IMG/VR virus record: IMGVR_UViG_3300045988_134081
Source: a virus
Length of the DNA stretch: 39,335 bases
Direction: 5' to 3' (one strand)
This document shows positions 3,001-37,631 of the stretch, piece after piece. The position numbers were made by a program, and so were the translations under genes. Every line of letters starts with the position of its first letter. Within the stretch, counting starts at the first letter, position 1. The notes under the pieces were generated by a model. That model searched no databases, was not told the origin of the DNA, and worked only from the letters and a program-made list of their open reading frames with translations.

Positions 3001-6000
3001 TCAATTCAGGGTTGTTCTTGTCAACTGCCTTGTCAAAATCAATGTGCTGTTCGTCATTGTCATTAAAATCAAATAAGTCATCGTATTCATCGTCAATTGA
3101 AAAATTCAGCGTATCGTGTATTGCACCGGCTTTTTCATCTGTAAAATCATAATCTTCATCAAGGCTGTAGCGAATATCAGGGTTGTTGCCGTCAAATGTT
3201 CCGATATTGTCTGTTGCAGATTTAACCTGAGTATTTTCAAATGCTATGAATGTTTTTGTGCTTCTTCCAAAACTGCCGACATCATTATTAACGATAACAC
3301 CGTCATAATTGCTGTTTTTGAAATAATCATCTATCAAGGCTTTAGCGTTATGGCTTGCTTCATTAACCTTATTTTCCCATTCTTCCATAATTTCATCAAG
3401 TGCATCTCTTGATATGGATTTTTGGTACTCTTCTTCAGATATTTCACCGTTCTTTTTCGCATTCCACAGCTTTTGATATTCCTCGTTTTCTCTTTTCATC
3501 TCCTCGTTGAATTTAGCCTTGTATTCCTTATTAACGCTGTCTATCGCACTTTTAGCTTTCGTATATCCCTGTACATTCTTATCGTAAAATTTAACAAGTT
3601 CGCTTCTGTTGTTGACAATGAGGGGATTTTTAATAGAGGCATACAACGGCATTTGAATATTTCCGCCAACTCCGATATCGTTGTTTGTCGGTTTCATAAA
3701 TATACCCGTCGGCATTTCGCTGTCAAATTCTCCCGAACCTTTTTGTTTTGTATCAAAGGTTGTAAACTCTTTTCCTGTTTGGTGGTACAAAACAAGCGGT
3801 TCACCGTTGTTGTCTACCGCTTTACTTGCTTTTGCAGGGCTATTCTGCCAATCACCGAACCATCTGATAAATTGTTTGCTTTGAGTAATATTATTGATTT
3901 TTTTATTGACATTATCATCAAATTTCGCTTGTACTATGTTGTCGGTACTTCCTATTGAATATTTCTCAACATCAATCTTCTCACCGTTCTGAACCTCTGT
4001 TTGCTCGGTGATGTTTTCTTTTGCGGTGTCTGCCGCCTCTGAAAATTTTTGAGCGAGTTTTTCAAGAGCTTCAAGGTCTTTGGCAAAGGCCTTGGCTCCG
4101 TAGTTTTGGCTTTTGCCGATGAGCCAATCCTTTACTTTTGCAATCAAAGATTTAATTGCCGCTGCAATTCTTGATTTATTCTGCTTCGTTCTGAGGGCAA
4201 TATTGAGAGCCTTTTCATCTGAGGCAATGCTCATAAGTGTGTCGCATACCATTTCTTCCAGTGCGGCATCTCTTGTGTTTTCGTGTTCATCGGCCTGCAG
4301 TCGGTTGCCGTACCTCTCAATAGTGCGGTCAATCATCTTGTTAAGGTCAACACCCTTGCGTACAAGGTAGTCTGACACAAAGTCACTCAATGTTCTCCAT
4401 TCGGTCGGGTTGGTTTTCTTAATCATATGTCCGGCTTCGTGTAAAGCTGTGGCAAGGATTTTCTGACTGCTGATTTCCGAACTAAGGATAATATTACCGT
4501 CACTTGCAACACCGTTCACTCCGTCTGCAAGGCGGTCTGAAATAATAATGTTTCTGCCCGTCTTTGTCGCAAGGTTGCCGAGTGTATTAATAAGCTCCTG
4601 CGGAATGTGCGAGACTTCTGTTCCGCTGTCTGCATACACGCCCACACCGCTTGTGTCTGCTCTGCCGTTGCGGTTGATTAACTCGGTCAGTCTGTTGGCA
4701 TGGTGTTGAGTGTTAATGTCAACATCTCTTCTGCCGGTGCTCAATGCCTGACTTACAATCTGTTCACCGAGAATATTTTTAAGGATTTTATATTCAGAGG
4801 TTTCTTTTAAAGAATCAAGTTTAACACCCTCTCTGCCGTAGTTGTATGCGGCTGAATAAGCATTATTATACTTATACAGCTGTTCTTCGTCACTCATTTT
4901 CTGCGCCTGCGGACTTTCACTCCACTCTTCAAAGTTTGAAATATAGTTTCTTGCACCGTATGTATCAAATTCGTTTGCACTGTGAACAATTGTATCAAGC
5001 TTGCTGTTTGAAAATGTTATACTGTCGGCATTAACCTGTTTGCCGTCATTTGTATTGAACACAAGTGTATTTTCGTCGTCATTGCGATTGATTTTAGCCG
5101 AGCTTTCAAGGCTCTTTAGTGCAATCTTGACAACCTTGCCTGTTGAAGTATCTGTTGCGATAATGCCGTTTGGGTGCTTCTTGCCAAATGCATATGCACC
5201 GTACATTTTGCCGATAGCCTCTGTATCGGCTTTTTTTGTTGCGTTGATTGCAGTGCTTGCCTGTGCCTGTTCTGCGTTCTGCTGTCCGTTCTGAGCCGTG
5301 TTCTGCTGTGTAGGGTTCTGTTCGTTCTGAACATTAACAGTCTGATTGCCTTGCTCTTGTGTATTCTGCTTTTTAACCTGAGCTATTCTGTTTACAAGTT
5401 CGGGATTTTTGGCAACCTCTCTGTTGATAAGATACATAAGGTTGCCGACATCTCCGGCACTGATTTTTCCCTCGTTATCGGTTTCAACGAGTTTCTGCAT
5501 TTTTTTAGCATAATTGTATGCTCTATCATTTTTGTCGGTTGCAAGACCTTGACTGATGAGCAAATCAAGGTCAAAGTTTTCATCGGCCATAACAGCTTTA
5601 CCGATTTGAATGTTGCTCTCTTTATTTTGTGCCATATCAATTTTTGCACCTGCAAGATTGACACCTGCGGTAGCAAGGTTAAGCACACCGCCCGATATTG
5701 CACCGCCGGCAAAATCAAGTCCGACGCTCTTCCAAAAGTGCCAGCTTGCGGCATTCTCCGCCTCAGCCTCATTCATTCCCTGTTCCATATAATTCTTCTT
5801 AGCAAGGTTGTATGAAGATAGGTCCTTGTTAATTGCGTCATCTGTCAATCTGTTTGCAAGGTCGGTAAAGGCCTCTTCCGAGCCTTCAGTAAATGCACCT
5901 TTAAGCACATTACCAACAGCAGCTCGAAATGTGCTTTTACCGCTTGCTTTAAACGCTGAGAGCTGTTCAAGAGAAACCTTTTCAAAAAGGGTTTCTGCAA

Positions 6001-7579
6001 TACCTGATGCAATACCGGTCTTTACCGCATTGTCAATTGTACCGCCATTGTTGATTACATCATTCGCTGCACCGACTCCGGCACTTGTGCCCATAATGCC
6101 GAGTGACAAAGCCTGTCCGCCCGGAACGGCATTGAGCGGTAACAAAGAGGCAAAGTCGGCCATACTCATTCCTGTGTTGTAAAGGAATGAACCGAAATCA
6201 TTGTTAATGTTTTCAGATACCTTTGCACGCATAGCGTCAGATATAGCCGTACCTGTTTCCTCGGGGTTAATATATCCGTCACCGCCGTTATATTTCTTAT
6301 CAAGGTCGGTTGAGATATATTTTATCGCATCGGGAACAGCACCACCGAGCCTTGCTCCTACACTTGCAATTGAACCGAGTATAGGATGTTCATCAGCATA
6401 CTCTGTACTTATTCTTGTAGTTTCCGCTGCTTTTTCTGCATCTCTTTCTCTTTCATACCATTTATATAATGATTCGGTGTCATAACCTTCCTTTTTCAGA
6501 TTCTTAAAATTCTTTTCAATCTGTGTACGCTCTTTGTCGGACAACTTGTTAATGTAGTTATAATCATCAAGAGTCACCTGATTTTTTATGCTGTCAGTAT
6601 CGTGTCCTGTACTTGCAAGCATATGCTTGGTATCATCATAGTGTTGTAAAGCATAGTACTTTTGCATTACAGTTTTGAGTATAACATTCTCATCAACTAT
6701 ATCGTCATACTCTCTTTTTTTCTGTTCAGAAAGTTTAGCTCTATTGATGTATGTATCAATTTTATCCTGTTCATCTTCAATATTCCTGCGTCTTGCTTCT
6801 TTGTTTTCGTCTGTACCTGTTGTTCCTCTGTCATACAGATTTTCGTATTCTTTGCTCAGTTCTTTTTTGTATTCTTCCAACTCCTTACTTGATGAGTTGT
6901 CATACATATGCTTGTTCAGCCAGTCAAGCTCTTCTGTTGTTGCGTGTATGCGTGCATTTTTCCTCTGTTCAAGCGTAGAGTTTTTGTATTTATCTGCATA
7001 CTTCTGTTCTTTCTCTGCCTGTTCTGCAAGTTTTGCGTTTTCAGCTTCTGCAATTTCGACATTCTGTCGGTTTATTTCCGTCTGCTTATTAACCCTGTCG
7101 GCAAGCTCGTCATATTCTTTCTGCATTTTCTCGGCTGTTTTGGTGTCACCTGTTGCAACCGCCGCGTTATACATGTATGTAAGTCCTTTGACTCTATCAT
7201 TCAAAGACTTGTTCGGGTTTTTAATTGTCTCCTTAAAATCCTCTGCAGAGCTATTCGCCTTATTCAAATTTCCGTTAAAAAAGGATTTAATATCCGAGCC
7301 TGTACTTGAAGAAGTATTGTTGCTGTTTTTCTTTCGGTTAATGATATTAAACATTTCGTTAACAGTCATTCTCGAACTTGTTTTTCCTGTGTCATTGTTG
7401 CCGGTAGTATCTTCTGTTTCACCGCTGACAATTTTACGGATAGTCATTTCAGAATTATGCTGAGGTTCAAGATTTCTTCCTATAAAATCTCCGCTTCTTG
7501 CTCCCAAATTGCTGAAATTATCCTTGCGGTATTTTTTACTGCTCTGCCTGCCTGTGATTATATCTTTTAATTCACCCAT
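1..7579 (-). CDS. Giant polyvalent-type virion (probably ejected) protein, N-terminal part. It continues across the circular junction into 39335..37671 for about 3,062 aa in total. It is absent from the supplied ORF track.
   Basis: ATG at 7579-7577 with AAGGAG 9 nt upstream and an in-frame TAA just upstream (7586-7588). Hand translation starts MGELKDIITGRQSSKKYRKDNFSNLGARSGDF. The frame (codon starts = 2 mod 3) was checked base by base and is open for the first 66 codons, at 56-322 and at 662-721. The track lists stop-terminated ORFs >=60 aa but none in this frame between 1 and 7579, which requires that no stop occurs before position 1. The codon at 53-55 is in phase with ORF 37671..39335. 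Contains ATALHEAGHM (HExxH at 4441..4427). Confidence 0.88.
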   Translation of the reverse strand, partial: MGELKDIITGRQSSKKYRKDNFSNLGARSGDFIGRNLEPQHNSEMTIRKIVSGETEDTTGNNDTGKTSSRMTVNEMFNIINRKKNSNNTSSSTGSDIKSFFNGNLNKANSSAEDFKETIKNPNKSLNDRVKGLTYMYNAAVATGDTKTAEKMQKEYDELADRVNKQTEINRQNVEIAEAENAKLAEQAEKEQKYADKYKNSTLEQRKNARIHATTEELDWLNKHMYDNSSSKELEEYKKELSKEYENLYDRGTTGTDENKEARRRNIEDEQDKIDTYINRAKLSEQKKREYDDIVDENVILKTVMQKYYALQHYDDTKHMLASTGHDTDSIKNQVTLDDYNYINKLSDKERTQIEKNFKNLKKEGYDTESLYKWYERERDAEKAAETTRISTEYADEHPILGSIASVGARLGGAVPDAIKYISTDLDKKYNGGDGYINPEETGTAISDAMRAKVSENINNDFGSFLYNTGMSMADFASLLPLNAVPGGQALSLGIMGTSAGVGAANDVINNGGTIDNAVKTGIASGIAETLFEKVSLEQLSAFKASGKSTFRAAVGNVLKGAFTEGSEEAFTDLANRLTDDAINKDLSSYNLAKKNYMEQGMNEAEAENAASWHFWKSVGLDFAGGAISGGVLNLATAGVNLAGAKIDMAQNKESNIQIGKAVMADENFDLDLLISQGLATDKNDRAYNYAKKMQKLVETDNEGKISAGDVGNLMYLINREVAKNPELVNRIAQVKKQNTQEQGNQTVNVQNEQNPTQQNTAQNGQQNAEQAQASTAINATKKADTEAIGKMYGAYAFGKKHPNGIIATDTSTGKVVKIALKSLESSAKINRNDDENTLVFNTNDGKQVNADSITFSNSKLDTIVHSANEFDTYGARNYISNFEEWSESPQAQKMSDEEQLYKYNNAYSAAYNYGREGVKLDSLKETSEYKILKNILGEQIVSQALSTGRRDVDINTQHHANRLTELINRNGRADTSGVGVYADSGTEVSHIPQELINTLGNLATKTGRNIIISDRLADGVNGVASDGNIILSSEISSQKILATALHEAGHMIKKTNPTEWRTLSDFVSDYLVRKGVDLNKMIDRTIERYGNRLQADEHENTRDAALEEMVCDTLMSIASDEKALNIALRTKQNKSRIAAAIKSLIAKVKDWLIGKSQNYGAKAFAKDLEALEKLAQKFSEAADTAKENITEQTEVQNGEKIDVEKYSIGSTDNIVQAKFDDNVNKKINNITQSKQFIRWFGDWQNSPAKASKAVDNNGEPLVLYHQTGKEFTTFDTKQKGSGEFDSEMPTGIFMKPTNNDIGVGGNIQMPLYASIKNPLIVNNRSELVKFYDKNVQGYTKAKSAIDSVNKEYKAKFNEEMKRENEEYQKLWNAKKNGEISEEEYQKSISRDALDEIMEEWENKVNEASHNAKALIDDYFKNSNYDGVIVNNDVGSFGRSTKTFIAFENTQVKSATDNIGTFDGNNPDIRYSLDEDYDFTDEKAGAIHDTLNFSIDDEYDDLFDFNDNDEQHIDFDKAVDKNNPELTIEQIYHHSARNVKEGLLAGKGIKPEQKKIYNMVKSVMRSYHINPNAETDSLVTEYVDALNTFIDAVQNDKSNFTDAFEDFVLKCRDTFRYSTQLDEQHEAWAKEIRDELKGTTLLIPENAIDTIKENYGSVGKYKKALFGKINVKLEHNAKGINGNAVGSYIEDIGSHLENIGGRSLMIEDGFDWDSDSGYRMLDHIMNYVLAPQYVATYDGEFESESTIDAAAIQMAFDTTAEYLKQQGKAAVMQNNIDKRKLRDINKALRQAEKAKTALNQKTIENYKTDIAEQKAKYNEQREKYRQAYNALKDKKSEEAKRYRDKIHELEELSKNQKAIIKTVKDTFRAQYTEKREQTKYMQMLGRKFDKLVKKFDAKSKNTENIPESLKRPILNVLIGFKESADPGQYKNGGKKTIPKYFGAWNNVAEIGEQVRNLYEEYKSLAPESSGKDKSTHEGMQYSYIDINSIAYNEQTAQMLEIITDQFAEYATDENGETIYDEDGKPIKVGYKNIFDLDSSDLRLLYDTMTALEASLTQATEIIVSGQRESIASAAAKALDEVSNVNYNKGVKINVLSKNTVGNKINAALSDMKELSNRFVATSLDPVRYGRFLSGYNDDSIVAKLFRDLHDGDVKREKIMQKAYTKVQSVAYQYSKKDLSKIQKDDVKEFDFRDTETGERVKVSQGIIMSIYLTDQQSSGRRHLLADRLNHYTVLPDLDSANSRRHSKQEKAKSENSHKIRFTFEDLQHIKRYVESNKMLREISGAISEVLNNELQQEINKVSMSKYGMLIATVRNYFPISVYGDGAAYEKDFSAEFNDVRMKSRGFVKRRESSSAPIVIDDVFRVFNRHTSSVAEWCGLTTPIENFKKVYNWINTNSLNGTTLHEAIIDKYGKAAEHYIDKLMGDLQKSKDTIDNNLLTRMQGNYMGAALLLNPGAMIKQFAAFPTANAYFGTKNVAIASAGGMWRVDLKKYAEYTPYLWYRAEGNGTVVGELSRETGVVGGTKSK

Positions 7580-13936: not shown

Positions 13937-14977
13937 TTAGAGGTGTGCCTCGCCTCGCCTTACTTTTTCGTAAAAGGCATCAAATTCAGCGTCAGACATA
14001 TCTTCCACGCTCTTTCTCTGCGTGGTTGTACCGCTTTTCTTGACCGCATTTTCGGTTGGTCGTCTTGCACCACTCTGAATTGACTGTGCTGCCGCACTTA
14101 TGGCGGCAGAGCTTGAACGCTTGACAAGGTCTTTCTGCAATTCATCAAAATGCGCCATTTTATAAGCAGTTGTCAAATCGTAAATTTCATCATTACGACC
14201 TGTCTTTTCGTTCTGTTCATTTTTCTGCTGAGCAATAAAGTCAAGAGCTGTGCGAAATGACGGATTCTGAAATTCCTCTTCAAGGTTGAAGTTTGGAAAT
14301 TCCTTCTGCGTTTCAGCCGCAATTGTTCTCAAATGTGTGTCAAGTTCTCTTGCGGCTTTTTCTCTTCGGAGGGTTTCGAGTTCTTCTTCCTGTGCATTTG
14401 TTTTCTGCTGATTGAAAAAGTCGTTGCGTGCCTCTTCTGTTGTCACTCCGGCGGCAAGAGCCTTTTCGGCAAACAAATCCTTGTCCTCTGTTACGGCTTT
14501 GAGGAGACCGTCGAGGTCATCGGGCTGTACATTGTACTTGTTTGCGATAAGGGCAAAAATCTGATTGCCGGTGCTTTCTCTTTTCTGCATATCTGAAATC
14601 TGCTTGTTTTTGGTTGACATTCTGTCCTTAAACAAAGACTGCGCTCTGTTCTGATACACATTTTTGAATTTACCTTTAATCAGCTTTTCAAACTCTTCTT
14701 CTAAGTTTTCTTCGTCGTCTGTGTCTGTGCTGTTGTTTTCGCCTTCTGCGTTATTATTCTGATTCTGATTGCCGCTGCCGAAAGCCTTGTTATAATCGTC
14801 GATAAGGTCGTCACCTATGCCGATTCTCTCAGCTCTCTCTCTCGTTTCACGGCTTATGTTGTTTTCGGTGCTTGTGGCTTCTGCACCGTGCTCACCGTTT
14901 CCGTCTCCGCCGTCAGCTGCGCCTGCTGAGTCGCCGTCATGCAGATTTACGATAAGATCTAAAAATTTGTCGTTCAT
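13937..14977 (-). CDS. Scaffolding protein; start re-assigned to the ATG at 14977.
   Basis: Acidic, coiled-coil-rich 346-aa product between the portal/Prp genes and the capsid gene. GGAGG lies 5 nt before the ATG at 14977. The track start at 15052 is a GTG with a weak RBS. The N-terminus MNDKFLDLIVNLHD aligns residue for residue with the capsid N-terminus. Confidence 0.75.
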   Translation of the reverse strand: MNDKFLDLIVNLHDGDSAGAADGGDGNGEHGAEATSTENNISRETRERAERIGIGDDLIDDYNKAFGSGNQNQNNNAEGENNSTDTDDEENLEEEFEKLIKGKFKNVYQNRAQSLFKDRMSTKNKQISDMQKRESTGNQIFALIANKYNVQPDDLDGLLKAVTEDKDLFAEKALAAGVTTEEARNDFFNQQKTNAQEEELETLRREKAARELDTHLRTIAAETQKEFPNFNLEEEFQNPSFRTALDFIAQQKNEQNEKTGRNDEIYDLTTAYKMAHFDELQKDLVKRSSSAAISAAAQSIQSGARRPTENAVKKSGTTTQRKSVEDMSDAEFDAFYEKVRRGEAHL

Positions 14978-15072
14978 AAGAACCTCCGTCTCGCGTCTAT
15001 CCGCGGTGTCTCTCTCGTCTTTCCGAGGTGTCAGGTCTTTATGCAGTCCCACTACTGCGACCTTATATTTTA

Positions 15073-15109
15073 ATTATATCAACCTTAATTTTTCAAAAAA
15101 AGTTAAAAC
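15073..15109 (-). promoter_or_regulatory. Putative late promoter (scaffold/capsid operon): GTTTTAAC-TTTTTT(T)-N-TATAAT.
   Basis: In gene orientation, GTTTTAAC (15109-15102) is followed by 23 nt and then TATAAT (15078-15073). The exact 14-mer AAAAAAGTTAAAAC (plus strand) is shared with 19509-19522 and 37618-37631. Confidence 0.55.
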
Positions 15110-18851: not shown

Positions 18852-19449
18852 CTTCGGGCGGTTGCATAACTTCCTGCATCGGGATTTCGATAATGCCGAG
18901 AGCGTTCTCTTCGTCCTGTTCCGTTGTATAATCTGCGAGGATATCACGAACATTGAGCAGACTCTTTGAAATTTCCGCTGCACGCTTTGTGTTTACAAGT
19001 GTTTTTCGCTTTGCATAATCGTAGCTGTATTCCTCTTCCGCTGTTGCGGTTTTCTCATCTTCGCTTTTTTCGGCTTTAACCGTTACTTTCTTTTTGATAA
19101 GCTCCTCGTCCTTGTCAAGCTCATTAACGGCTCTGTTCAGCTTTGTGATGAGTTTTGAGGCAACGGCCACAACCCTGTCAATCTCTCTGACGGTTTTCTT
19201 CACTTTCTCTGTGTTGATTTTCTCGGCTATTTTGTTTGCCGTTTCACTCTGATTCTGCTTTCTCAGCTCCTGCCAGCGTTCTTTTCCCGACCTTTTTCGT
19301 ATGGCATACACGCTCACTCCGTACTTTTCGGCAAGTTTTGAAGCGGACATTGTGCCGCTGATATACTCAGCTTTAATTTGCACCCAGTCAATTGCTTTTT
19401 GCTCATTTAATTCTGTCTGCTGTCCTTTCAAGTCTTTTTTTTGACTCAT
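18820..19449 (-). CDS. terS: Terminase small subunit.
   Basis: 209 aa with an N-terminal HTH-like MSASKLAEKYGVSVYAIRKRSGKERW and an acidic tail. It lies directly upstream of, and overlaps, terL. Confidence 0.72.
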   Translation of the reverse strand: MSQKKDLKGQQTELNEQKAIDWVQIKAEYISGTMSASKLAEKYGVSVYAIRKRSGKERWQELRKQNQSETANKIAEKINTEKVKKTVREIDRVVAVASKLITKLNRAVNELDKDEELIKKKVTVKAEKSEDEKTATAEEEYSYDYAKRKTLVNTKRAAEISKSLLNVRDILADYTTEQDEENALGIIEIPMQEVMQPPEDDEQDGESVE

Positions 19450-19485: not shown

Positions 19486-19522
19486 ATTTTAGCTTTTTTC
19501 TTTCACGCAAAAAAGTTAAAAC
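19486..19522 (-). promoter_or_regulatory. Putative late promoter (terminase/portal operon).
   Basis: In gene orientation, GTTTTAAC (19522-19515) is followed by 23 nt and then TAAAAT (19491-19486). It carries the same exact 14-mer as the other two sites and lies ~37 nt upstream of the terS ATG. Confidence 0.55.
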
Positions 19523-19603: not shown

Positions 19604-19668
19604 ACGAAAGTGAAATTTTTGAATTGATTTAAAATTTTCGCATATTATGTTTTTAAAAGATTGATATT

Positions 19669-19911
19669 TTACAAATCTTTGCTGATCGACTGAGCAAGCG
19701 GACAGCCTCGCCAACAATAGCTACCGCAAAAATCGTTGAAGTGATTTTCTTTGTCCTGCGGTGAATCAAAAAACAGCGTTGTACTCTTGCTCTTGTACAC
19801 CGCCCCGAAACAGCAAATCTTACTTTGGCTGTCGTAAGAATAGAACGGACATTTGGCTTTGTTTTCTTTCAAATTTATCTCTCCTTTGATTTTGTATCTA
19901 TTCCGCTGCAT
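19669..19911 (-). CDS. Small Cys-rich hypothetical protein.
   Basis: 80-aa ORF containing 7 Cys (CPFY...CCFG...CGSYCWRGC), downstream of rep. Confidence 0.55.
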   Translation of the reverse strand: MQRNRYKIKGEINLKENKAKCPFYSYDSQSKICCFGAVYKSKSTTLFFDSPQDKENHFNDFCGSYCWRGCPLAQSISKDL

Positions 19912-19970: not shown

Positions 19971-20723
19971 TTACCATTTCCGCCTCTGCGTAATCGGCAG
20001 AAAACAAAAATACCATTTTGCACCGCCGATATCCGAGTAGTTCATTGAGTAATCGTCCTCAATGAGATAATGACCCTCGGGCGCTTCAATCATTTCGCCA
20101 CGTTCAAGCGCTCTGATTTCTTTTCTTTTCGCCTTTCTTGTGACCGATTCAGGCTTTGTAAGATTGCGACTTGTCATCATCCGCTTTTGTGCGGCATCAA
20201 CATCTTCTTTACCTGTCAAGTCTTTTGTTATGTACTCAGCTAACTTTTTAAAATTCTCGTTTTTGTAGAGCGGAGTAAAGTTCTGACCATTTTCATATGG
20301 CCATTGTTCAGACAGCAGTTCCCTGTCCTCTTTGCTTACGATAATGTGGATATGCCAGTTCTTACCCGACTTACCGCACTCAATAAACGCTATGTACTTC
20401 AATCTGCCCTTGCCCTGCTTTTTCAGGCGGTAATTTATTCTGTAAAGCCATTTACCTACCTCTTTGCGAAACTCTTCTTCTGTTTCATATGTTCCGTAGG
20501 ACGCAGAAAAGCGACAGAAGAAATCACCGCTTCCAAAGTTTGCGTTGATGAGCCTCTGCATATGCTTAACCGCACGGAGCTTGTTTGCCGTCCTCATCTT
20601 GGCCGAGCTTAAAGAATTATTTGATTTCCTTCCGCCATAGTTTTTGCCTATTTTTCGGATTGATTGATAGTATTCAACTTCAATCATATCTCCGCTTTTG
20701 ATTGTTCTCTTATATGTGTACAT
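19971..20723 (-). CDS. HUH-superfamily rolling-circle replication initiator (Rep).
   Basis: Motifs occur in canonical order: FFCRFSAS (motif 1-like), WHIHIIV (HUH; His codons at 20352-20354 and 20346-20348) and AEYITKD (YxxK; Tyr codon at 20232-20234), with ~38 aa between the HUH motif and the Tyr. Confidence 0.7.
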   Translation of the reverse strand: MYTYKRTIKSGDMIEVEYYQSIRKIGKNYGGRKSNNSLSSAKMRTANKLRAVKHMQRLINANFGSGDFFCRFSASYGTYETEEEFRKEVGKWLYRINYRLKKQGKGRLKYIAFIECGKSGKNWHIHIIVSKEDRELLSEQWPYENGQNFTPLYKNENFKKLAEYITKDLTGKEDVDAAQKRMMTSRNLTKPESVTRKAKRKEIRALERGEMIEAPEGHYLIEDDYSMNYSDIGGAKWYFCFLPITQRRKW

Positions 20724-21108: not shown

Positions 21109-21498
21109 TTATTTTTCTGCCGGATCTGACTCTCTTACCGTGTCAGCCGTCTCATCGGGCTGAGATTCAGCCTTCTTAATAGGCTCATACACCGAGAGCT
21201 TACCTGCCATAAGAGCGTTGACCTCAGCCAGCTTTGTGATGTTTTCATTCAGCACTCTGTTGTACTTCATTTCTTCCTCTCTTGTACACAAAAGATTTCC
21301 GATGTTGTCCTCGAGCATCTGATTTTCTGCTCTTAATCTTCTGTTTTCTTCCCTGAGCTTTTTGCAGCCTCTTTCAGCATTGAGTAATTTAAGCTGAAGA
21401 TAATCAACCTGCATAAGTACCGTCGCAAAACGCTCGTGTGCGGATTCTTTTAAGTTTTCAATCTGAGCGTTTAAAAATTCTTTATCTGCTCTTCTCAT
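21109..21498 (-). CDS. Coiled-coil hypothetical protein; start re-assigned to the ATG at 21498.
   Basis: The ORF has heptad-like LKLLNAERGCKKLREENRRLRAENQMLEDNIGNLL. GAAAGGTGA lies 6 nt upstream of the ATG at 21498. Confidence 0.7.
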   Translation of the reverse strand: MRRADKEFLNAQIENLKESAHERFATVLMQVDYLQLKLLNAERGCKKLREENRRLRAENQMLEDNIGNLLCTREEEMKYNRVLNENITKLAEVNALMAGKLSVYEPIKKAESQPDETADTVRESDPAEK

Positions 21499-21585
21499 AT
21501 GTATAGTCACCTTTCATTTTTTATAAAACAACTGCAAGGATAATCCCTGCTTCTGCTTGCGCAGAACTTGTACCCTCGGCATTCC

Positions 21586-21708
21586 TTACAAGAGCGGCAG
21601 GTCAATGTCTCTTTTGTCTCGGTACTTACTTTTGATTTTTCCCATGCCGACGAGTGCTGTATATTCGCCGTAACTGTATGATGTTCCGTGTTCTTCATTG
21701 TATTTCAT
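21586..21708 (-). CDS. Possible 40-aa protein (MKYNEEHGTSYSYGEYTALVGMGKIKSKYRDKRDIDLPLL). Uncertain: it competes with the overlapping 63-aa ORF 21507..21698.
   Basis: The ATG at 21708 is preceded by GAGGAG. It corresponds to the C-terminal part of track ORF 21586..21918, whose N-terminal part overlaps 21734..22144. Confidence 0.3.
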   Translation of the reverse strand: MKYNEEHGTSYSYGEYTALVGMGKIKSKYRDKRDIDLPLL

Positions 21709-21733
21709 TAACTCCTCGCAAATAAGGTCAATG

Positions 21734-22144
21734 TTATCCTTCTTCCTCTTTGTCCTCGGCTTCGGGTTCAGATTCGGATTCACAGTCTTCTCCCAATGTA
21801 GCTTTCTCGCTGTTGATGGCTGCTCTGATAACTGCCTTGAGCTTTGCTTTTTCTTCTTCGCTAATTTTGATTTCTTGGTCATATCCATATTTCCTTTCGT
21901 ATTTTCTTCCGTCTGCAAAGCCGTTCGTATAGCTCTTATTGCAACGCTTATTAGTGATGTCCCAGTTTTGATTGATTGTTCGACCTTGCTTTTGATTCTC
22001 TTTCAAAAGGCGGTCGTTTTCTTCCTTCTCAACTTTATAAAGGTCACGATAAAAGTTAATGTTTTCCCTCATCCAAATAAGCGTTAAAATAAACGCTACT
22101 ATAAGGATTAAAAACACAATAAGCATTGTTGTTCCTGCTGACAT
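21734..22144 (-). CDS. Membrane-anchored hypothetical protein with an acidic tail.
   Basis: 136 aa with an N-terminal TM helix (MLIVFLILIVAFILTLIWM). RBS AGAGGTG lies 8 nt upstream. Confidence 0.7.
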   Translation of the reverse strand: MSAGTTMLIVFLILIVAFILTLIWMRENINFYRDLYKVEKEENDRLLKENQKQGRTINQNWDITNKRCNKSYTNGFADGRKYERKYGYDQEIKISEEEKAKLKAVIRAAINSEKATLGEDCESESEPEAEDKEEEG

Positions 22145-25886: not shown

Positions 25887-26174
25887 TTACTCCTTATAGC
25901 TTGCACAAATATAATCCTCTGCTGTTTCTTCAATTTCGATATGCCCTTTATCTGCGAGACTTTCTTCAATCAGTTTCAAATCAAACGGCAAAGGCAAATT
26001 GTTCTTTTCACAAAGTTCATTAAAGCCATTGAAAGCTCTAACAATTCTGTCTCTTAAATATCTGACATCGTTATGTGCGTCAATAAGTTCAATTTTTGTT
26101 GAAGCTAATCTTACTTGCACATCTTCAAGCTGTCTCTTGCAACGCTTGTATTTCTTTCTTGATACAAAAATCAT
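25887..26174 (-). CDS. Hypothetical early protein.
   Basis: 95-aa ORF with a 4-nt overlap with the upstream gene. Confidence 0.6.
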   Translation of the reverse strand: MIFVSRKKYKRCKRQLEDVQVRLASTKIELIDAHNDVRYLRDRIVRAFNGFNELCEKNNLPLPFDLKLIEESLADKGHIEIEETAEDYICASYKE

Positions 26175-26881
26175 TTTTCGACACCCTCCTTTACAATTTT
26201 TTTGGCTCTCACGCCATAATGTTTGCTCATTGACTCAAGCTCACCTTTTGCGTTACCGTCTTTGACCGGCAACTGCTGTCTTGCCTTTGTAGGATAGTCA
26301 TCGCCTGTCAATTGTTCCCACATCTCTCTGCGGTTGTCTTTAAGGCAAGTGTTGAGATATGACATAACAACCTGCTCAAACGGCACTTTACTGCCGAACC
26401 TGTCAATAAGCTCATCAACAATCTTGCTCATATGCCGTCTTGCGTAATCTTTCGGCTTCTTGTATGCTCTGACCGAGTTCCACAGCTTGATATGTACATT
26501 CTCATGTGTCAGTTCATCAATTGCCTTTGCCTGCAACTCGCACAGCTTAACGAGGTCAACCTCATCTTTGCCGTATTCCTTGCAGACTTCCGAAAGCGTT
26601 ACACTTGCACTCCTCACCGAGTCGATCTGCTGTTCCTGTTGTACCAGCAAATGTTCCGTCTTGAGCTTCAGTTCACGATACTCCTGAAAGAATTTTAATT
26701 TATATGCGGCAGTGTATTTTTCACTGAGCAAACCAACCTTGCACATAGAATAGGCATTAGCAAGTTCCAGTACTAATAACCTATCAAATAGCTTCAATGA
26801 TACAACTTCAAGATGATTGACCTCTCCGTCAATCCACCTTTTCGCCATGTCATTGAGTTCGTCAAGTGCTTTGTCATTCAT
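26171..26881 (-). CDS. Hypothetical early protein.
   Basis: 236-aa ORF, translationally coupled on both sides. No motif recognised. Confidence 0.7.
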   Translation of the reverse strand: MNDKALDELNDMAKRWIDGEVNHLEVVSLKLFDRLLVLELANAYSMCKVGLLSEKYTAAYKLKFFQEYRELKLKTEHLLVQQEQQIDSVRSASVTLSEVCKEYGKDEVDLVKLCELQAKAIDELTHENVHIKLWNSVRAYKKPKDYARRHMSKIVDELIDRFGSKVPFEQVVMSYLNTCLKDNRREMWEQLTGDDYPTKARQQLPVKDGNAKGELESMSKHYGVRAKKIVKEGVEK

Positions 26882-27129
26882 TCATCACACACCACCCTTA
26901 CCTTGAAAAGGTTCTGAATAGGTATGCCAAATTTGTTGGCAAGCCTCGACAGCTCTTCCACCGTAAAAGTACCCGGATCTTTAATTCTTTTCCTGTAGGT
27001 GCCCTCAGAGCAATGTGCCACAAGAGCCTGTCCTTCACGGTCAATACTTCTGATTTCTGCCTCATACTGTATATTGGCAATCAACTGCCTTTTCATTTGG
27101 TCCTCTGGCTTAGCTAATTTTCTCGGCAT
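26878..27129 (-). CDS. Small putative DNA-binding (HTH-like) protein; start re-assigned to the ATG at 27129.
   Basis: GGGTGAG lies 4 nt upstream of the ATG at 27129. The C-terminal FTVEELSRLANKFGIPIQNLF is HTH-like. Confidence 0.55.
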   Translation of the reverse strand: MPRKLAKPEDQMKRQLIANIQYEAEIRSIDREGQALVAHCSEGTYRKRIKDPGTFTVEELSRLANKFGIPIQNLFKVRVVCDE

Positions 27130-27178
27130 TCTTCTCACCCTTTCGTTATTTAGTCCTGTAATCTGATATCGACTTTTG

Positions 27179-27373
27179 CTAGTCGCTTTCATAAACTTCC
27201 GAAAAAATTTCACTCAGATGATATGCAGGCATCAGATTTATCCTTTTTGGACAATTCTCTTCTGGATCTGCAACACCTTCTTCAATTTCGAGCAAGACTT
27301 TTTCTGCGCCGTCCTTTTTAAGTTCGTTAAGCTGATTGATTAGGTCATCAATCCTTACTGTAATTCGGTTCAT
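27179..27373 (-). CDS. Small acidic hypothetical protein.
   Basis: 64-aa ORF with a 4-nt overlap with the GIY-YIG gene stop. Confidence 0.55.
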   Translation of the reverse strand: MNRITVRIDDLINQLNELKKDGAEKVLLEIEEGVADPEENCPKRINLMPAYHLSEIFSEVYESD

Positions 27374-33414: not shown

Positions 33415-33437
33415 CGTGTTGGATTTCGTGTTGGATT
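33415..33437 (+). repeat. 23-nt direct repeat, right copy (putative arm-type sites); overlaps the endolysin stop.
   Basis: Identical to 33198-33220. Confidence 0.85.
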
Positions 33438-34428
33438 AAGCACACAAACTTCTGAATGTGTTACCGCCTGCAATTCCGTCGGCAGTCAAGCCGTGAGCCT
33501 GCTGATATGATGTAACTGCGGATTCTGTACCGTTACCGTAAATTCCGTCAAAACCATTCGGATCATATCCGTTGCAGATAAGCAATCCCTGTAAAACTTT
33601 GGTAATATTTCCTCTGCAGCCTTTTGATATAACAACAATTGCATTATGAGTGCCCACACCGTAAATTCCGTCAACAACAAGGTTCATTCCAAACTGACGG
33701 TTAAGTTCTTCCTGCAACTTCATAACCAAATGTTTTTTCGTGTCAGAGCCGTAGATTCCGTCAACTGTTGTTCCAACCCACGCCTGTACAGCTTTAGTGC
33801 CGTAGTATTTCGGTGGTGTACTCGTTGTTGCTGAACTGCCCTTATAGTCAGCATTAAATATAATGTCGGTATCAACATTACCATTAATTCCGTTGACCTT
33901 TCCGCTGTCGGAGCATTGCCAAATGTCGCAAGTACGACACGGAGAGTCTGTTTCCCATTGAGCAAGCCAAATTGCATATTGCTTTTTAAGTTTTTCGTAA
34001 TTGAGATAACTTGCAAACCAGCTTGCACTTGCATAAACGCCGGCTGAATAGCCATGAACTTTAACACACTCACAAAATGCTACTGTCATTGCTGTTAAGG
34101 AATCTTTGCCGAGTTTGGTCTGTGAGCCAAGTTCCAAATCATAAAACACTGGTAAATCAAGTTTTCTGCCATTTAAGCAATAGAGGCAAGCACTTGCTTC
34201 CTTTTTCGCCTCGGCAACGCTGTACGCATACGAAAACCAATATACACCGACTTTCAGTCCTGCGGATTTTGCTTTCCTATAATGCTCTTCAAACTGTGCA
34301 TCTTTTTGGTAAGTTTCACGGCCAAAGCCGGCACGAATAATAACCGTGTCTATACCGTCAGCCTTAACTTTGTTGTAGTCAACATTGGTCTGACAAAAGC
34401 TAACATCAACAGCAGTTACTCTGTTCAT
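33436..34428 (-). CDS. Endolysin: GH25 muramidase + two PG_binding_1-type repeats; start re-assigned to the ATG at 34428.
   Basis: N-terminal VDVSFCQTNVDYNKVKADGIDTVIIRAGFG...GVYWFSYA (GH25 pattern). The C-terminus has two VDGIYG / DGIYG...ADGIAG repeats. AAGGAG lies 8 nt before the ATG at 34428. Confidence 0.88.
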   Translation of the reverse strand: MNRVTAVDVSFCQTNVDYNKVKADGIDTVIIRAGFGRETYQKDAQFEEHYRKAKSAGLKVGVYWFSYAYSVAEAKKEASACLYCLNGRKLDLPVFYDLELGSQTKLGKDSLTAMTVAFCECVKVHGYSAGVYASASWFASYLNYEKLKKQYAIWLAQWETDSPCRTCDIWQCSDSGKVNGINGNVDTDIIFNADYKGSSATTSTPPKYYGTKAVQAWVGTTVDGIYGSDTKKHLVMKLQEELNRQFGMNLVVDGIYGVGTHNAIVVISKGCRGNITKVLQGLLICNGYDPNGFDGIYGNGTESAVTSYQQAHGLTADGIAGGNTFRSLCA

Positions 34429-35149
34429 TTTTGTTCTCCTTTTCAAGACTTATTTTTTCGATTGTTGCTCTTAATTCAAGGGCATTAAGATATCCTTTCA
34501 TATGCACAAACTGTTCGTAGAGTAATTCATACGAACAGTTTGGCTGGAACGGCAGTTTTCCTGCTTTGTAGGATTCAAGCATTCTCTGTAAACCGGTTAT
34601 TCTGATAAGCAACTGTTCATATTCTGCTTTAAACCTTTCCTTGAAATCCGTACTCTTCATAAGTAACGCCGTATCGTTCAGAAGGTTCTTTCCCTTTTCA
34701 AGAAATGTGTTTTCAAAATCTTCTTTGGGCGGCCACGACTCGTGACCGTCAGCGTGCTTAACATGATAACCTTCATCATCCGGATTTTCGTCCGTAGGTA
34801 TCTGCCAGCCTCTGTATGTATTATAATCGCCTCTTGTCATCGGATCGGCTTCAATTTTTTTAACTCCGATATAAGGTTTCATTGCTGTTTCCTCTCTTTC
34901 GTAAAGCTGTTTTGCAAGGACATATCCTTCAAGTTCCCACAATTTGTTTTCAATTTTGGCCATACAGATTTCTGTACCGATTTTTTCATCATAGTTTGCT
35001 GGATCAACTGCTCCGCTTGCCTCGGTTATAACAAATCCGTTTGGCAGTTTACAGTTTACGATTGTTACTTTATCGTAAACTGTTTCGACCTTAATTTCTG
35101 ATTTTTCAAGTAATTCGTCAATCTGTCGTTTGGTAACGATATTCTTCAT
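34406..35149 (-). CDS. Multi-domain hypothetical protein with an N-terminal Gp49-like domain, embedded in the lysis cassette.
   Basis: VTIVNCKLPNGFVITEASGAVDPANYDEKIGTEICMAKIENKLWELEGYVL resembles the N4 gp49/Sf6 gp66-type family pattern as I recall it. The remainder is unassigned. Confidence 0.5.
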   Translation of the reverse strand: MKNIVTKRQIDELLEKSEIKVETVYDKVTIVNCKLPNGFVITEASGAVDPANYDEKIGTEICMAKIENKLWELEGYVLAKQLYEREETAMKPYIGVKKIEADPMTRGDYNTYRGWQIPTDENPDDEGYHVKHADGHESWPPKEDFENTFLEKGKNLLNDTALLMKSTDFKERFKAEYEQLLIRITGLQRMLESYKAGKLPFQPNCSYELLYEQFVHMKGYLNALELRATIEKISLEKENKNEQSNCC

Positions 35150-35686: not shown

Positions 35687-37567
35687 CTAAAACACAAAAT
35701 CAAAATTTAATTCATCACCATCAGAAAAAATAAAATCTTTATCCGCCAATAAAGTGATGGAAAACCAATTTTTTCCCTCACCTATCAAACCCTTAAACAA
35801 GTCCCCTGTTGAGCAAATACCTATTGTTATTATTCGCTCTTTTGTGTTATTGAAGGGTAAATCAATAAGATGCAGTGACTTATGTTTTCCTAAAGTAGAT
35901 GCATTCATACTTAAACAAATATGAGCCGCACATACATTACCTACTTTAAGGTACCTACATGTTGCCGATTTAACAAAATCGGACTGTGTCGAGTATGGAT
36001 TAAGTTTTGCGTTTCCTGTTATCATGTCAAAAACTGTATCTAAAGCTCGCACGTGAGCATTTTTCATATTTATGGGCAAAAAATCCACACTAATATAACC
36101 GTCTCCATCTTGACCTAAATTGTCAAAATTGCAACCAATAACATCTGCTTTCCATTCATTATTGGTCATTTTAGTTCCTGTTCCTCTATTTGTTGACTTA
36201 TAATTGGGCGTATCTGAGGCAGTTGCAAAGTACGTAAGGTACGGAATACCAAAAGTCTCTAAATTATTTTTATAAACTTGATTATATCCGTTAAGACAGT
36301 TATTAATTAACGCTCTGCCGGCGTTGAAAAATTTAAACCCATATTTGGTAGAGTCTATCATGCATTGACTATAAGTGGCAACACCGCCCCAAACCGTAAA
36401 AGAAGTGGAATGACTCATAATGTTTGTGTTATATGCACACCACGCGTGACACTTATTGAAATGATTGTCCGCTCCACCGCTTAAAAAACCGCATTCAAAG
36501 TCTACTGAAATAGAGTCTGTCACATAGGTGTCAGCACAACCGAGAAACAACATCGTTGAAAGAAGCCTTTCGTCACCCTTTACATAACCGCTTGTTATTA
36601 TGTCTTTGGCAGCCCCACTTATGCCACTTCTCGTACCGTTAATAAAGCTGAAAGTAGCTTCATTTCCGCCATAACTTCTGACCCCGTACAGCGCAGGATT
36701 CCTTACCATAATATGAGCGTAATTTGTTTTCCCTTCGTTTTCAATTTTAAGTCCGTGTTTGGTAAGTCCGTTGTTGCAATCTATTATTAGGTTCTTAAAC
36801 GAGCCGATATTGTATTTCGCATTATTATCCGACTTTACATTAACTGTAATAACCGAGTTCAAACGCCATAGTCCCACTACTTTCGGCTCAGAACCGTAAT
36901 ATGTTTCATCCTGTTTTTTACAACTGTCAGATACTTTGATTGTTGAAAAATTGCCATCAAAATTTGCTCTATCAACATCATATCTAAGCGTGTTACTAAC
37001 TAAATATGTTTTATTGTTGCCAAGTTTAATCGCTTGATTATTTATCCCAGCTTGACTAAGCATTTGTTGCAGTGCGACCGTATCGTCTGTTACTCCATCC
37101 CCCTTAGCACCGAACATTTCAGGCGTAAAATAATTGTTTAACTGTTCAACAAGTTTCGAGGTCTTATTGTAAAAACTAAGTATTTTTTCATACAATCCAA
37201 AGCCTACGGTTTCACTCGGCAACATACCTTTCTGCCTGTTAATTCCGACAAGGTTGGTATTGAGTGTTACTGTATTGCCATTGCTATCTGCATAACTACC
37301 GGTCAGGCTGAAATAGACTTTATCCCCCTCAAGCTCTGACGGTATGTCAAACACTGCGGTTTTGTCATCAGCTGTAAGGCTCACTGTACTTTTAACGATA
37401 TTATCTTTTTCGCTCATAAAGTTTGCCGTAACAAGAGCGCAGTTGTCCCAGTCGGATTCCATAAAGTAGCATTTGATTTTAGTGTATTTCTTTTCACCGA
37501 GAACCGGATTAAATCCATCTCTGCGTTTCAGGGTATTTTTATATACCTCAAATTTTAAAGTATTCAT
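35687..37567 (-). CDS. Tailspike / depolymerase with a pectate-lyase-type right-handed beta-helix domain.
   Basis: FTPEMFGAKGDGVTDDTVALQQML is the hallmark N-terminal motif of Pectate_lyase_3 / glycoside-hydrolase tailspikes. 626 aa, with its own promoter. Confidence 0.75.
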   Translation of the reverse strand: MNTLKFEVYKNTLKRRDGFNPVLGEKKYTKIKCYFMESDWDNCALVTANFMSEKDNIVKSTVSLTADDKTAVFDIPSELEGDKVYFSLTGSYADSNGNTVTLNTNLVGINRQKGMLPSETVGFGLYEKILSFYNKTSKLVEQLNNYFTPEMFGAKGDGVTDDTVALQQMLSQAGINNQAIKLGNNKTYLVSNTLRYDVDRANFDGNFSTIKVSDSCKKQDETYYGSEPKVVGLWRLNSVITVNVKSDNNAKYNIGSFKNLIIDCNNGLTKHGLKIENEGKTNYAHIMVRNPALYGVRSYGGNEATFSFINGTRSGISGAAKDIITSGYVKGDERLLSTMLFLGCADTYVTDSISVDFECGFLSGGADNHFNKCHAWCAYNTNIMSHSTSFTVWGGVATYSQCMIDSTKYGFKFFNAGRALINNCLNGYNQVYKNNLETFGIPYLTYFATASDTPNYKSTNRGTGTKMTNNEWKADVIGCNFDNLGQDGDGYISVDFLPINMKNAHVRALDTVFDMITGNAKLNPYSTQSDFVKSATCRYLKVGNVCAAHICLSMNASTLGKHKSLHLIDLPFNNTKERIITIGICSTGDLFKGLIGEGKNWFSITLLADKDFIFSDGDELNFDFVF

Positions 37568-37594: not shown

Positions 37595-37631
37595 ATTATA
37601 TAGTTTTCTGCCGGCTCAAAAAAGTTAAAAC
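37595..37631 (-). promoter_or_regulatory. Putative late promoter (tailspike-lysis operon).
   Basis: In gene orientation, GTTTTAAC (37631-37624) is followed by 23 nt and then TATAAT (37600-37595), 28 nt upstream of the ATG at 37567. It carries the same exact 14-mer as the other two sites. Confidence 0.55.

Follow-up and report, generated by a model that had tools for sequence, protein, structure and literature searches.

Genome organization and transcription units

The window, i.e., the whole stretch of 39,335 nucleotides analyzed here (IMG/VR record IMGVR_UViG_3300045988_134081), closes into a circle, its ends overlapping by 55 bp, and corresponds to a phage genome of 39,280 bp. The phage is temperate, encodes a portal of the P22 type (PF16510) and belongs to a clade of widespread, uncultured temperate gut and rumen phages characterized by this portal and by a giant polyvalent protein. 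GenBank phages yielded no close or annotated relative. A near-identical terS gene is present in a metagenome-assembled genome (MAG) of a Ruminococcus sp. from the rumen, and this match suggests a Ruminococcus-type, i.e., Gram-positive Clostridia-type host.

An early/middle operon occupies the minus strand from about 30.4 kb to 19.67 kb and comprises ImmA/cI/cro-type genes, ParB, a PAPS-reductase-like gene, a rolling-circle Rep, a small Cys-rich gene and many small ORFs. It is followed by three late units on the same strand, each headed by one of three closely similar sites, which we term P1, P2 and P3. The relevant features are as follows:

19971-20723, minus strand: rolling-circle Rep (HUH endonuclease; PF23343, phrog_3584), neighbour of the Cys4 gene
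19669-19911, minus strand: Cys4 (zinc-type) protein, candidate regulator, the last gene before the terminator and P1
19603-19576, minus strand: intrinsic-terminator-like hairpin with a 12 bp stem followed by a T run, ending the early/middle operon just upstream of P1
19486-19522, minus strand: putative late promoter P1, with the box at 19522-19509 and the -10 hexamer TAAAAT at 19491-19486
15073-15109, minus strand: putative late promoter P2, with the box GTTTTAACTTTTTT at 15109-15096 and the -10 hexamer TATAAT at 15078-15073
14978-15066, minus strand: predicted 5' leader from P2, with a 5' stem-loop and two 22-nt hairpin units in tandem (15032-15011 and 15010-14989) ahead of the scaffold start codon
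37663-37640, minus strand: intrinsic-terminator-like hairpin, ending the unit from the scaffold to the giant gene just upstream of P3
37595-37631, minus strand: putative late promoter P3, with the box at 37631-37618 and the -10 hexamer TATAAT at 37600-37595

The P1 unit contains terS (19449-18820), terL, the portal gene and a Prp-like gene, and P1 lies ~30 nt upstream of the terS start at 19449. The P2 unit runs from the scaffold gene (ATG at 14977) through the capsid and further virion genes to a gene of 3,062 aa that spans the junction of the window. Since the window is circular, P3 comes after the end of this giant gene, about 21 nt upstream of the start (37567) of a 626-aa fibre-like gene; two predicted small holin-like membrane proteins and a putative endolysin (33436-34446) complete the P3 unit. 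The initial annotation had placed two of the sites just downstream of intrinsic terminators, and the hairpins at 19603-19576 and 37663-37640 bear this out for P1 and P3. No terminator lies ahead of P2, which would therefore act as an internal booster promoter. Taken together, this arrangement provides a working transcription map of three late units, each with a defined promoter.

Several further elements surround these units. The two hairpin units of the P2 leader read GACACC-TCGG-AAAGAC-GAGA-GA and GACACC-GCGG-ATAGAC-GCGA-GA, and each folds into a small hairpin whose loop is of the GAAAGA type. In one close relative there are three 22-nt units. Such units are also found upstream of the scaffold genes in the diverged lineages L113, L114, L118, L133 and L196, where they are kept with compensatory stem changes (CTCG/CGAG, CGCG/CGCG, CACG/CGTG, GCGG/CCGC). 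The leader hairpins could be a translational operator or a protein-binding RNA for the scaffold-capsid operon. Between the stop codon of the Cys4 gene and the terminator, at about 19632-19662 on the minus strand, lies the element TTTTAAAAACATAATATGCGAAAATTTTAAA, whose core AAACATA[ACT]ATATGC[AG]AAA is kept in L111, L112, L113, L133 and L196 despite their differing late-promoter boxes. This element may serve the neighbouring rolling-circle Rep as nick site or origin, or else be a packaging signal. Just upstream of Rep, three small genes (21109-22144, minus strand) form a block that is shared as a whole by the window group, the L113 lineage and the L116/L197 lineage. One encodes a 136-aa protein whose N-terminus bears a hydrophobic stretch, another a Cys-rich protein of 63 aa and the third a coiled-coil protein of 133 aa, which also occurs in L112; the block may form a “middle” module.

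Three sites with a common box and identical geometry

The 14-mer AAAAAAGTTAAAAC occurs on the plus strand of the window in exactly three copies, at 15096-15109, 19509-19522 and 37618-37631, as the initial annotation had reported. It is absent from 100 dinucleotide-preserving shuffles of the window, and hence its chance expectation is 0. The geometry is likewise as claimed, with 23 nt separating the 8-mer from TATAAT (P2), TAAAAT (P1) and TATAAT (P3). On the minus strand GTTTTAAC-N23-TAnAAT matches only at 15109-15073, 19522-19486 and 37631-37595, and the longer pattern GTTTTAACTTTTTT-N17-TAnAAT yields three minus-strand matches and no other in the window, with a chance expectation of 0. A motif common inside coding regions would have spoken against a promoter role. 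The 8-mer GTTTTAAC by itself is found three times in the window, always at P1, P2 or P3, and copies of the 14-mer with 2-3 mismatches are no more frequent than expected by chance. The sole 1-mismatch copy (31243-31230) was rejected as a promoter, since it is intragenic and has no -10 at the right distance.

In agreement with the earlier description, all three sites are intergenic and located 5' of minus-strand late genes (terS at 19449, the scaffold gene at 14977, the fibre-like gene at 37567). Each lies 20-90 nt upstream of the start codon at the head of a late gene block, and a purine-rich, Shine-Dalgarno-like stretch precedes that start codon. The position where a -35 hexamer would be expected reads TTTTTT at P1, P2 and P3 and does not match the host -35 consensus. 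Early promoters of the same phage are built differently, with TTGACA-17/18-TAnAnT at 30586-30557 and 29331-29303. The host sigma factor thus uses a normal -35, and the missing -35 at the late sites is a real and meaningful difference. While the absence of TTGACA noted initially holds, the T run is not simply an empty -35 but part of a longer conserved block. With the -10 hexamer numbered -12 to -7, the functional block consists of the box (G/C)TTTTAACTTTT(T/A)T at about -43 to -30 plus TAnAAT; the box is 14 bp long and asymmetric. The -10 of P2 is preceded by TGa and is therefore an extended -10 (TGaTATAAT), whereas P1 and P3 have no TG extension.

Conservation of the box in close relatives

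An exact-pattern scan of IMG/VR retrieved more than 100 loci, mostly from close relatives, with up to three sites each. Because such a scan is biased by its own pattern, relatives were fetched by protein instead, and the motif was left unused: loci for P1 and P2 were collected via the portal protein, and those for P3 via the N-terminus of the fibre protein. At P1, GTTTTAACTTT...TAAAAT is kept in all 15 portal-fetched loci, across two distinct flanking/spacer haplotypes, with TTTTAT in place of TTTTTT in six of them. At P2, [G/C]TTTTAACTTTTTTT...TATAAT is retained in 18/18 portal-fetched loci, two of which have C at the first position. The 14-mer of P3 is present in each of the 33 fibre-fetched relatives with an invariant box and -10, and nearly all variation among them falls into the spacer just downstream of the box. 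Flanks and spacer thus vary among the protein-fetched relatives, while the box and the -10 stay the same.

Box replacement in diverged lineages

In distant relatives (portal 37-62 % identical) the gene order is kept and the box is different. Within one genome, terS and the scaffold gene are preceded by a common box, with TAnAAT 16-21 nt downstream of it. The boxes and the gaps to the -10 in the diverged lineages are:

L112: box GTTG[AT]TACTGCAAAA, gap N16
L113: box GGGTAGGTAGAA, gap N18/19
L114/115/116/117/197: box CGGTGGGGTTG, gap N19-21
L118: box TTTT[GC]ACTGACAC, gap N20
L133: box TTGTGCCGCC, gap N19
L196: box GAGGGAGAAAT, gap N16
L173: box TCCAGCGGGAGAAAT, gap N17
L182: box GCTTAGGGTGGGAGACA, gap N17
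L179: box TGTTACATG, gap N16

GTTGWTACTGCAAAA is likewise an example of a distinct box at homologous positions, 16-21 nt upstream of TAnAAT. In the CGGTGGGGTTG lineage a third site also carries the box, after the giant gene and before the homologue of the fibre gene. Box sharing was controlled by scoring 12-mers with at least 11 matches together with TAnnnT at a matching distance. By this measure both regions of one genome share a box in 8/10 lineages, as compared to only 2 of the 90 pairs of regions from different lineages, and one of these two pairs reflects the truly related box of L196 and L173. No box pairs were detected in about a dozen distant loci bearing the Cys4 gene, and the architecture is therefore firmly shown for about 10 lineages only.

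Some boxes are partly alike. L173 and L196 share GGGAGAAAT; the window and L112, when aligned on the -10, have G-T-T at -31 to -29 and A-C-T at -25 to -23 in common (counted from the first base of the hexamer); and L113 and L196, aligned in the same way, share AGGnAGAA. Such partial identity between neighbouring lineages looks like the gradual divergence of one recognition system. Otherwise, box similarity tracks the overall phylogeny of the phages and, as a consequence, does not pick out any single protein. The -35 region in the other lineages is GC-rich and unlike TTGACA. Promoter specificity is swapped as a set between lineages. A constant primary-sigma -10, together with a box that is replaced in step at all late promoters of a genome, is the hallmark of a specificity factor that is encoded by the phage and cooperates with the host polymerase.

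The slot between the Cys4 gene and the terS promoter is not constant in content. In L110 it holds a reverse-strand cassette at about 5580-7570, including an HTH_3 gene, and in L113 a reverse-strand cassette of small ORFs at about 6530-7470. Accordingly, this slot tolerates accessory (moron-like) insertions.

Proposed mechanism and alternative explanations

These observations make us confident that P1-P3 are late promoters with a sigma-A-type -10 and no usable -35, which depend on a phage-encoded box-binding factor. Based on the sequence comparisons, it is most likely a phage-encoded, lineage-specific factor that switches them on. We infer that transcription initiates at P1-P3, that the control is positive and which protein might exert it; positive control is preferred over repression because no lineage has a usable -35. 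In the proposed scheme, host RNA polymerase with its primary sigma factor would read the near-consensus TAnAAT -10, and a sequence-specific phage factor made from the early/middle operon would bind the 14-bp box. The factor would replace the missing -35 contact, acting either as a class-II-type activator or as a substitute for, or appropriator of, sigma region 4. The genes for packaging, for the head and the giant protein, and for the fibre and lysis would in this way be turned on together, and the terminators would block read-through from earlier units into the late units. Owing to its extended -10, P2 may be partly independent of the factor. The dedicated late factor postulated at the outset is thus supported by the conservation of the box and the -10, by the in-step replacement of the box and by the canonical -35 of the early promoters, with the refinement that the recognized block spans -43 to -30 rather than -43 to -36.

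Alternatively, the reader of the box might be a complete alternative sigma factor or polymerase specificity subunit, encoded by the phage, that recognizes both promoter halves. Its position at -43 to -30 overlaps the location of sigma region 4, and an asymmetric, lineage-specific box would suit a monomeric reader. Yet, the -10 remains the primary-sigma consensus TAnAAT in all lineages while the box changes completely, and the window proteins scanned contain no Sigma70_r2 or r4 signatures, which renders an alternative sigma very unlikely. Hardly more attractive, and slightly less probable still, is the notion that the promoters are constitutive, with a strong -10 and AT-rich upstream DNA, and that the box is the operator of a phage repressor silencing late genes in early infection or lysogeny. 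The box does overlap the -35 region, a classic operator position, and the extended -10 of P2 could work without a -35. However, P1 and P3 do not have the TG extension, and the -35 region of other lineages is GC-rich and unlike TTGACA, so that unaided promoter activity is unlikely; moreover, the box is absent from the cI/cro switch region and from the rest of the genome.

We consider it extremely improbable that the repeats are sites for DNA packaging, for replication by the neighbouring rolling-circle Rep or for recombination rather than transcription signals, even though the genes for a DNA-binding terS and for an HUH Rep lie next to P1. Neither the fixed distance to TAnAAT and the orientation toward downstream genes, nor the placement after terminators and at three operon heads in several lineages, has a rationale for a pac site or an origin. 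Furthermore, Rep occurs in unrelated phages, and no copy was found ahead of the packaging genes in L173, although this lineage has a box pair. Activator-dependent late promoters thus remain our preferred reading of P1-P3.

Candidate regulators

The initial annotation stated that no regulator was recognizable among the early proteins. For known families this is correct: scans against Pfam, PHROGs and NCBIfam revealed no member of the sigma, DUF1492/ArpU/RinA, Mor/C, Ogr/Delta or MotA families among the window proteins scanned. Nevertheless, the conserved Cys4 protein encoded upstream of P1 qualifies as a candidate. Across the diverged lineages Rep and the Cys4 protein are the only two non-structural window proteins that are always present, and all-against-all clustering combined with an HMM search marks the Cys4 gene as the non-structural gene with the broadest conservation upstream of the terminase genes (23/32 loci), mostly within about 1 kb of terS. 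Also in favour of the candidate, two sister lineages without the Cys4 gene feature an ORF no more than ~1 kb upstream of terL with sub-threshold matches to DUF1492 or Sigma70_r4, as in late activators of the Ltr type. The family has four invariant Cys and, at 50% identity, falls into about 1,600 clusters, almost all of stand-alone proteins of ~70 aa. As a rare fused form, L140 harbours a 411-aa ORF (5343-6575) containing a Cys4-family domain, besides a stand-alone copy. The gene in the window has an annotated ATG at 19911, and a start-type codon at 19872 would give ~67 aa. In several close relatives the conserved part is preceded by a stop codon, and the family starts ~10 residues ahead of a CPFY motif; 19872 is thus probably the true start.

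The AlphaFold model of the Cys4 protein (pLDDT 88) displays a beta3-alpha2 topology with three strands and two helices. The protein has no Pfam, PHROG, NCBIfam or PDB-sequence match, and the fold search returned no significant match to a solved structure and no known DNA-binding relative, only uncharacterized gut-phage proteins. On the grounds of its position it is the best candidate for the late-promoter factor, an assignment we regard as possible, though tentative. It might bind the box itself or serve as an RNA-polymerase-binding partner of another reader. Somewhat more doubtful is the wider proposal that the Cys4 family constitutes a new class of phage late-transcription factors, by which the host sigma-A polymerase would be directed to the lineage-specific boxes at -43 to -30.

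Several findings argue against the candidate. The charge of the family is near-neutral (median pI 7.6), and the orthologue in L111, which serves the same box as the window, has a pI of 5.0. The comparison of L173 and L196 is the sole case able to separate a Cys4-box link from phylogeny: these lineages share GGGAGAAAT, but their Cys4 proteins are dissimilar. Among the L173 proteins none was found to be unusually similar to its L196 counterpart. The dozen or so distant Cys4-bearing loci in which no box pair was detected also count against it.

Other early proteins are less suitable. The HUH and YxxK motifs of Rep (19971-20723) are invariant, indicating a true nickase; as a regulator it was rejected, since it is a mobile replication gene that occurs in unrelated HK97-type phages without a Cys4 gene and was not detected ahead of the packaging genes in L173. 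The HTH protein at 26878-27213 is an unlikely regulator as well, given that a 75-78% identical copy is present in the CGGTGGGGTTG lineage, whose box differs completely. A 236-aa protein (26171-26881) was considered as a hidden sigma factor and discarded, as neither family nor PDB searches gave a signal for it. No copy turned up in the L116/L117 lineage; the L110 locus stops short of the corresponding region.

Comparison with known late-transcription systems

With a -10, no -35 and a shared upstream box, P1-P3 belong to the generic class of activator-dependent phage late promoters, and the box changes in step at the late promoters in a manner specific to the phage lineage. Phage Mu employs the activator C at its late promoters Plys, PI, PP and Pmom, and Mor at Pm; the C and Mor sites are dyad-symmetric and bound by dimeric proteins of the Mor/C family. 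Similar to Mu, the window phage possesses several late promoters with a -10 and without a -35, a shared site over the -35 region and a -10 fit for host polymerase with its primary sigma. The Mu activator site is centred near -43, and the box of the window extends from about -43 to -30. In contrast to the Mu sites, this box is asymmetric, Pfam scans produced no Mor/C-family match, and the putative host is of the Gram-positive Clostridia type.

P2 Ogr and P4 Delta are proteins of ~70 aa with four zinc-type Cys, which activate several late promoters without a -35 from TGT-N12-ACA dyads centred near -55. The Cys4 candidate would parallel these activators in size and in its four Cys. Unlike their sites, however, the box of the window is located at -43 to -30, and the Cys spacing of the Cys4 protein is different; neither this protein nor 100 relatives matched Ogr_Delta in Pfam. 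The middle promoters of the lytic phage T4, whose host is Gram-negative, carry a MotA box with its centre at -30 and depend on the co-factor AsiA as well. As in the MotA/AsiA system, a phage box appears to replace the -35 while sigma still reads the -10, yet no relative of MotA or AsiA was detected in the window.

The Ltr superfamily (RinA, ArpU, LtrA-C) comprises late activators of phages of Gram-positive hosts; they are encoded directly upstream of terS, the genes for packaging, morphogenesis and lysis depend on them, and the whole late region of these phages is driven from one promoter in front of terS (PMC3753634, PMC3152322). The window phage resembles them in being temperate and in its likely Gram-positive host. 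It differs by its three late promoters and by the terminator that separates the second unit from the third, and no DUF1492, ArpU, RinA or sigma70_r4-like protein is found among the window proteins scanned. The slot that an Ltr gene would occupy yields sub-threshold matches in some sister lineages only.

The lineage-specific boxes can help in the annotation of late operons and in assigning these phages to regulatory types, and the search for the regulator is narrowed to very few conserved early genes, chiefly the uncharacterized Cys4 family. Activator-dependent late promoters without a -35 are an already familiar mechanism, and by analogy the regulatory logic of the window phage would be of the Mu C, RinA or MotA type, of which the box, the clade and the factor would be new instances.
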